A stretch of DNA of 7,587 nucleotides from NCBI GenBank assembly GCA_000004985.1, contig GG739128.1; one strand, written 5' to 3'. Made by a program: the position numbers and the translations under genes. Under the pieces are notes generated by a model. It made no database searches, had not been told where the DNA came from, and saw only the letters and a list, made by a program, of their open reading frames with translations. Positions 7,543 to 7,587 of this stretch are shown piece after piece. The DNA comes from Naegleria gruberi. Its lineage: Eukaryota. Numbering within the stretch: the first letter of the stretch is position 1; every line of letters begins with the position of its first letter.

Positions 7543-7587
7543 GAAGTTGTAAAATTATGCCAAAAGTGAATATTGACATGTCAAGTA
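7543..7587 (+). CDS. PLC exon 3, continuing the EF-hand and running off the window. As written, frame 0 reads EVVKLCQK then TGA at 7567..7569. Homology continues in frame +2 (VNIDMSS), which implies a 1-nt frameshift at 7562..7566.
   Basis: PLC-delta1 has ...[18 protein letters not shown]. The window gives EVVKLCQK in frame 0 and VNIDMSS in frame +2. Inserting one A into the A4 run (caaaag to caaaaag) yields ...LCQKVNIDMSS. Confidence 0.5.

Follow-up and report, generated by a model that had tools for sequence, protein, structure and literature searches.

The window, by which we mean the whole stretch of 7,587 nt that was analysed, has a GC content of about 29% and consists of two short contigs (1-1361 and 6564-7587) joined across a scaffold gap of 5,202 N (1362-6563, unstranded). 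On the left-hand contig, an ORF on the plus strand (1064-1361) begins at an ATG and enters the gap. It contains two Cys pairs (CSVC...CCSKC) in a zinc-finger-like arrangement, gives only weak Pfam matches (SNAPC3, E 0.014; zf-FCS, E 0.08) and probably represents the beginning of another gene, upstream of the PLC gene, that the gap interrupts. A putative ORF on the minus strand (33-269) is complete, with 78 residues (MSVTSNSNSSNEMKEN...), acidic and rich in Asn and Ser; no Pfam match was found for it. Scans of the window for tRNA genes and Rfam families gave no match. The right-hand contig, of 1,024 nt (6564-7587), holds all that is visible of a gene for a phospholipase C (PLC).

What the window contains of this PLC gene, all of it on the plus strand, is the 5' part only, from the start codon through the PH domain to the first EF-hand loop. 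Coding exon A (6615-7041) starts at the ATG, encodes an N-terminus of low complexity rich in Ser, Thr and Asn and the first half of the PH domain, and ends in phase 1 ahead of the donor g/gtatgt (slashes mark junctions throughout). Intron 1 (7042-7163) is 122 nt long and runs from gtatgt to atag. Coding exon B (7164-7480) supplies the second half of the PH domain, a linker and residues 1-11 of EF-hand loop 1 (DVNNDGQLDYK, encoded at 7448-7480), ending in phase 0. Intron 2 (7481-7542; 62 nt, gtaagt...tag, phase 0) is a GT-AG intron with its acceptor tag at 7540-7542. Exon C begins at 7543-7566 with GAA GTT GTA AAA TTA TGC CAA AAG (EVVKLCQK), and its starting frame is fixed, since GAA at 7543-7545 supplies Glu-12 of the canonical EF-hand loop. 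The complete loop of 12 residues reads DVNNDGQLDYKE and scores 20.1 bits against EF-hand_1, below the cut-off.

Taken alone, the window protein yields PH and EF-hand matches that are both sub-threshold in Pfam and PDB comparisons, and its identity as a PLC was established through orthologues. The PH match has a position and length that fit a PH domain, with a weak score (17.7 bits, E 5e-3, for a cut-off of 25.1 bits). A full HMMER scan that took exon B as query yielded 12 relatives, among them P0001 and P0002, both prokaryote-style ORF calls on metagenome contigs; a word-indexed protein search with exons B and C added P0020. Protein identity over exon B is 88% for P0001, 83% for P0002 and 69% for P0020. 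From the contigs of these relatives we obtained four loci, each an uncharacterised PLC gene on a metagenome contig: L002 (ENA ERZ4903137 k141_2435985) from P0001, L001 (ENA ERZ2098899 NODE_2022) from P0002, and L003 (ENA ERZ27315067 k141_202848) and L004 (JGI 3300002220) from P0020. The four are orthologues of the window gene, with 69-88% protein identity over exon B and a near-identical exon C. Synonymous sites are near saturation between lineages (pS 0.56-0.79), so the window and the metagenome loci belong to different species.

The gene structure is also common to these loci. The start codon, visible in L001 and L003, is the same as in the window, and the loci have intron positions in common. 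Within exon A, both this codon and the ELCEQI...KKETK block align with L001, L003 and L004, and intron 1 has the same position and phase in the window, L001 and L003. The leader of about 65 residues (6615-6815, plus strand), of low complexity and rich in Ser, Thr, Asn and Pro, is barely alignable between orthologues. Intron 2 lies at the same position in the window, L001 (about 1577-1629) and L002 (about 379-429) and is absent from L003 (intron-less junction 1168/1169) and L004; an intron between Lys and the EF-loop Glu is thus present or absent among close orthologues. The introns of L003 are very short (41, 43 and 45 nt), those of the window being 122 and 62 nt long.

Other searches were negative within their scope. 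The word-indexed search with the whole spliced protein gave no match, probably because the Ser/Thr/Asn-rich N-terminus flooded the candidate list. The large protein collection searched contained no protein of the window's PLC gene, JGI metagenome scans (with protein and with a degenerate DNA pattern) gave no match, and the two ORFs that a prokaryote-style caller would make from the window had no exact record, so that the collections searched yielded no second assembly of this organism. A literature search returned nothing pertinent.

PI-PLC-X and PI-PLC-Y domains lie directly downstream in L001, L003 and L004, followed through to a C2 domain in L001 and L003. The spliced L003 protein has 903 residues and the Pfam order PH (weak), EF-hand, EF-hand_like, X, Y and C2. 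Its scores are 214 bits for PI-PLC-X, 127.5 bits for PI-PLC-Y and 48.6 bits for C2; EF-hand_7 (44.8 bits) and EF-hand_like PF09279 (27.3 bits) are each above cut-off, while PH, as in the window protein, is below it (21.2 bits, E 4e-4). No SH2, SH3, RA or CDC25 domain is among the 11 Pfam families listed for L003 (whole-protein E ≤ 0.01). The best solved relative of this protein is rat PLC-delta1 (1djg, E 1.3e-109), and the mammalian enzyme (PDB 1djg, 1djx and 1qas) has the same domain order: PH, EF-hands, X box, Y box, C2. The PLC-delta register given in the earlier note agrees with the HMMER alignment, which places KADANNDGQLDYKEVAKLCQKLNIDMSS without gaps on 28 residues of rat PLC-delta1 (1djg). 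Within the EF-hand 1 region, KEVAKLCQKLNIDMSS falls gapless on 16 residues of the rat protein. The PH domain and the N-terminus are strongly diverged from PLC-delta1, with a long Ser/Thr/Asn-rich leader in this gene. The window itself shows the PH domain and the first EF loop only, the catalytic part being known from the orthologues. Judged by sequence comparison, the window gene is a PLC-delta-type phosphoinositide phospholipase C.

Among named proteins, the only matches to the divergent PH-EF region come from Discoba (Naegleria gruberi EFC35821.1, Percolomonas cosmopolitus and Entosiphon sulcatum), at 31-42% identity. These heterolobosean and euglenozoan PLCs share the LN[ILM] motif eight residues past the EF-loop Glu. 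The catalytic domain of the orthologues is 50-60% identical to PLCs across many eukaryotic groups, with no close named relative. The Naegleria gruberi protein EFC35821.1 (P0009), annotated as 'predicted protein, partial', has a PLC-like start (PH and first EF loop), then a stretch resembling the end of a C2 domain and an unrelated C-terminal part; it resembles a chimeric or gap-affected gene model.

The earlier note had described a 1-nt frame break in exon 3 of the PLC gene, at which EVVKLCQK runs into a stop and after which the conserved protein resumes one base back, as ...KVNIDMSS to 7587. We find the same, and its coordinates and arithmetic are exact: the A run occupies 7562-7565, AAG 7564-7566 and the in-frame TGA 7567-7569. 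In the shifted frame exon C continues at 7569-7587 (plus strand) with AAT ATT GAC ATG TCA AGT A, encoding NIDMSS(K...), up to the end of the window. NIDMSS, the six complete codons past the lesion, is identical in all the orthologues.

The four orthologous loci, which represent three lineages, show what is missing. At this site they read caaaa[g/a]TTGaa[c/t]attgacatgtc, that is, EV[V/A]KLCQK followed by LNIDMSSKSMKQ, and exon C runs through EV[V/A]KLCQK-L-NIDMSSKSMKQ in a single frame in all of them. The window has caaaag followed by TGaatattgacatgtc, and the one-T form of its site is AAAAGTGAAT. In the exon C alignment the window row is GAAGTTGTAAAATTATGCCAAAAG-TGAATATTGACATGTCAAGTA, with a gap of one base, and the orthologous rows are ...CAAAAGTTGAACATTGACATGTCCAGTAAATCCATGAAACA/GTAAGT for L001, ...CAAAAATTGAATATTGACATGTCCAGTAAATCAATGAAACA/GTAAGT for L002 and ...CAAAAGTTGAACATTGACATGTCAAGCAAATCCATGAAGCA/GTAAGT for both L003 and L004. 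Thus AAG TTG AAY in the orthologues stands against AAG-TG AAT in the window, with TG where those loci have TTG; one T is absent between G7566 and T7567 (plus strand), and this absence creates the TGA. Exon C is otherwise collinear between the window and the four loci. A Leu eight residues past the loop Glu is found in 7 of the 8 more distant relatives that span the position, P0006 having a Val.

The lesion had been attributed to the A4 homopolymer, and there the orthologues disagree: caaaag is the same in the window, L001, L003 and L004, and what the window lacks is one T from the Leu codon TTG. The A run itself reads AAAAG in L001, L003 and L004 and AAAAA in L002. Adding an A, the repair first suggested, does restore the frame, but it gives Val where the orthologues support an added T and Leu (...CQK-L-NIDMSS). 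The exact repair is a T inserted after 7566, and the site then becomes AAAAGTTGAAT. This also weakens the homopolymer-error rationale, since a TT doublet is no classic trap of that kind.

With one gap allowed, the 21 bases past the lesion match the orthologues at 19-20 of 21 positions (P about 6e-9 to 2e-10 for the window composition); ungapped, just 3-4 of 21 match. Every variable column past the gap falls on a third codon position when read in the orthologue frame. The differences of the window there (columns 30 and 42) are synonymous and each is common to at least one orthologue, no base being unique to the window. Since only synonymous differences are found past the gap, the stretch past the lesion has, on this comparison, stayed under coding constraint in the shifted frame, although synonymous sites between these lineages are nearly saturated.

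Could the break be an effect of splicing and not a frameshift? The earlier note had left room for a different acceptor giving a continuous frame. L003 and L004 exclude it, being intron-less at this point and reading DYK/EVAKLCQKLNIDMSS without interruption. As they read gactataag-gaagttgca... with no intron, both the K/E junction and the frame are proven. An alternative acceptor, or an alternative donor (GT at 7485), giving KVRSCKIMPKVNIDMSS was rejected as well: the EF-loop Glu would be missing from it, and the same two intron-less loci contradict it.

A further possibility is that there is no frameshift at all, the GT at 7566-7567 (gtgaat) being a donor, exon C a micro-exon of 23 nt (7543-7565) and NIDMSS an intronic coincidence. 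GTGAAT is indeed donor-like, and an exon of 23 nt would end in phase 2, as does the orthologous exon of 59 nt, so that the frame would be kept. Yet the 21 bases past 7566 agree with the coding sequence of the orthologues at 19-20 of 21 positions, with synonymous changes only (P below 1e-8), whereas the true introns of these loci are of very different lengths (41-122 nt), and L003 and L004 even lack intron 2. Every donor read across the five loci carries G at +5 followed by T at +6 (GTATGT, GTAAGT, GTTTGT, GTGAGT), while GTGAAT has A at +5, and the product would lack the linker together with the helix that enters EF-hand 2. We consider such a micro-exon highly improbable and reject it as contradicted by the orthologue alignment. 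As a separate observation, the absent T turns AAAA/GTTGAA into AAAA/GTGAAT (7562-7571), which is a better donor-like hexamer. Splicing after 7565 would keep the frame and delete 12 residues; this is probably irrelevant, as the observed donors all have G at +5.

The stop might also be bypassed during translation, either by programmed -1 ribosomal frameshifting, in which tRNA-Lys on A-AAG, beside the TGA, would slip back from AAG to AAA (...CQK-V-NIDMSS), or by reading TGA as a sense codon. A -1 shift would yield exactly the conserved downstream frame, and A-AAG followed by a stop is a slippage-prone context known in bacteria. Against this, all four orthologous loci do without a shift, each being in one continuous frame, and C-CAA-AAG T is not a canonical X-XXY-YYZ heptamer. 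Re-pairing would be open only to the Lys codon in the A or P site (A AAG). The window extends 20 nt past the site. Decoding TGA as sense would give ILTCQV, which matches nothing, while the DNA aligns only with a gap of 1 nt; besides, no other in-frame TGA occurs in the exons. We reject conserved programmed frameshifting on the orthologue frame and the non-canonical heptamer, and TGA as sense on its unmatched reading; recoding in any form seems to us extremely improbable. The window stretch bearing the putative -1 slippage site is CAAAAGTGAAT.

The earlier note had offered two explanations, a sequencing or assembly error and a truly frameshifted copy, and these are the two that remain. Both must be compatible with the constraint seen on the gene. 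The dN/dS ratio is 0.064 against L002 (117 common codons, dS about 1.0) and 0.13 against L001. A second lesion was sought in about 790 nt of coding sequence and none was found, and both introns are GT-AG. Among the features that mark pseudogenes, the sequence as assembled thus has a disabling mutation (the 1-nt deficit leading to TGA at 7567-7569), while relaxed constraint, extra lesions and damaged splice sites are absent. Taken together, a single lesion, a low dN/dS, intact splice sites and a constrained downstream frame imply that the deficit is either unreal or very recent. Moreover, as the orthologues encode complete PH-EF-X-Y-C2 enzymes, the gene family is functional and not decaying.

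A real and recent deletion, leaving the PLC copy or allele frameshifted in the sequenced strain, would make it a recently formed pseudogene, a loss-of-function allele confined to the strain, or a heterozygous site seen in one of its haplotypes. The lesion is, after all, present in the sequence as given, the TT doublet is no classic sequencing trap and the flanking bases look clean. The distant relatives include several distinct PLC-like proteins, and losing one copy would be tolerable if the organism has paralogues. On the other side stand the single lesion, the dN/dS of 0.064-0.13 and the two intact splice sites. With 21 nt downstream showing synonymous differences only, the inactivation would have to be extremely recent, and a place at the end of a 1-kb contig beside a gap favours error. 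For these reasons we regard a genuine deletion as unlikely, although it deserves to be kept in mind.

If the deletion were real, translation would give a product of 256 residues, with the PH domain and a single unpaired EF-hand loop and without the catalytic X/Y barrel or C2. L001, L002 and L003 all splice 24 nt downstream of the site equivalent to the premature stop. With a premature stop upstream of at least one further intron, the mRNA would, on general grounds, be a candidate for nonsense-mediated decay, an outcome that we judge likelier than the 256-residue product. It is also conceivable that a real T deletion is accompanied by partial rescue of expression, through -1 slippage of tRNA-Lys stimulated by the adjacent TGA or through the new donor AAA/GTGAAT at 7566, but we find such a rescue very improbable. 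Rescue by the donor would mean an in-frame deletion of 12 residues in the linker between EF-hands 1 and 2.

The explanation that we prefer is an error. The deficit of 1 nt occurs where only 21 nt of sequence are left, on a contig of 1,024 nt joined across a gap of 5,202 N. In draft assemblies, coverage is low and indel errors are frequent towards contig ends, and doublets tend to be under-called in such places. To judge from the odd length of the window, its end would be the true end of the contig. Since the lesion is so near to the sequence end, and the contig is short and adjoins a 5.2-kb gap, we infer that the absent T is most likely a base-calling or assembly error and not biology. Like the draft-assembly indel errors that mimic frameshifts and pseudogenes, it is an isolated 1-nt deficit in an otherwise constrained gene, next to the presumed end of a short contig in a gapped scaffold; unlike them, it lies outside a long homopolymer. 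A TT doublet is, in this respect, an atypical site for a homopolymer error. Two further points weigh against an error: the last 45 bases are clean, with no other indel or non-synonymous oddity, and a very recent genuine deletion would give the same result in every test run.

We propose that the locus would carry an intact and constrained PLC-delta-type gene of an AT-rich eukaryote, whose assembled sequence is one T short in the Leu codon TTG after CAA AAG, probably through a mistake in base calling or assembly near the end of a very short contig of this gapped draft scaffold. The gene itself would then read ...DYK/EVVKLCQKLNIDMSSKSMKQ... and extend beyond the window, encoding EF-hand 2, the catalytic X and Y boxes and a C2 domain. 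The sequence KSMKQKYKQFDTDGSGYIEYQEF can serve as a probe for the rest of the PLC gene beyond the window.

Gene prediction on the sequence as assembled will shorten this PLC gene, divide it or miss it altogether, and the alignment with its orthologues supplies the exact repair of the annotation. Its practical value is in annotation, and the biological importance of the deficit is small. Should the deletion be real, a PLC-delta-type gene in an otherwise poorly sampled eukaryotic lineage would carry a loss-of-function allele of very recent origin, a finding of modest interest.
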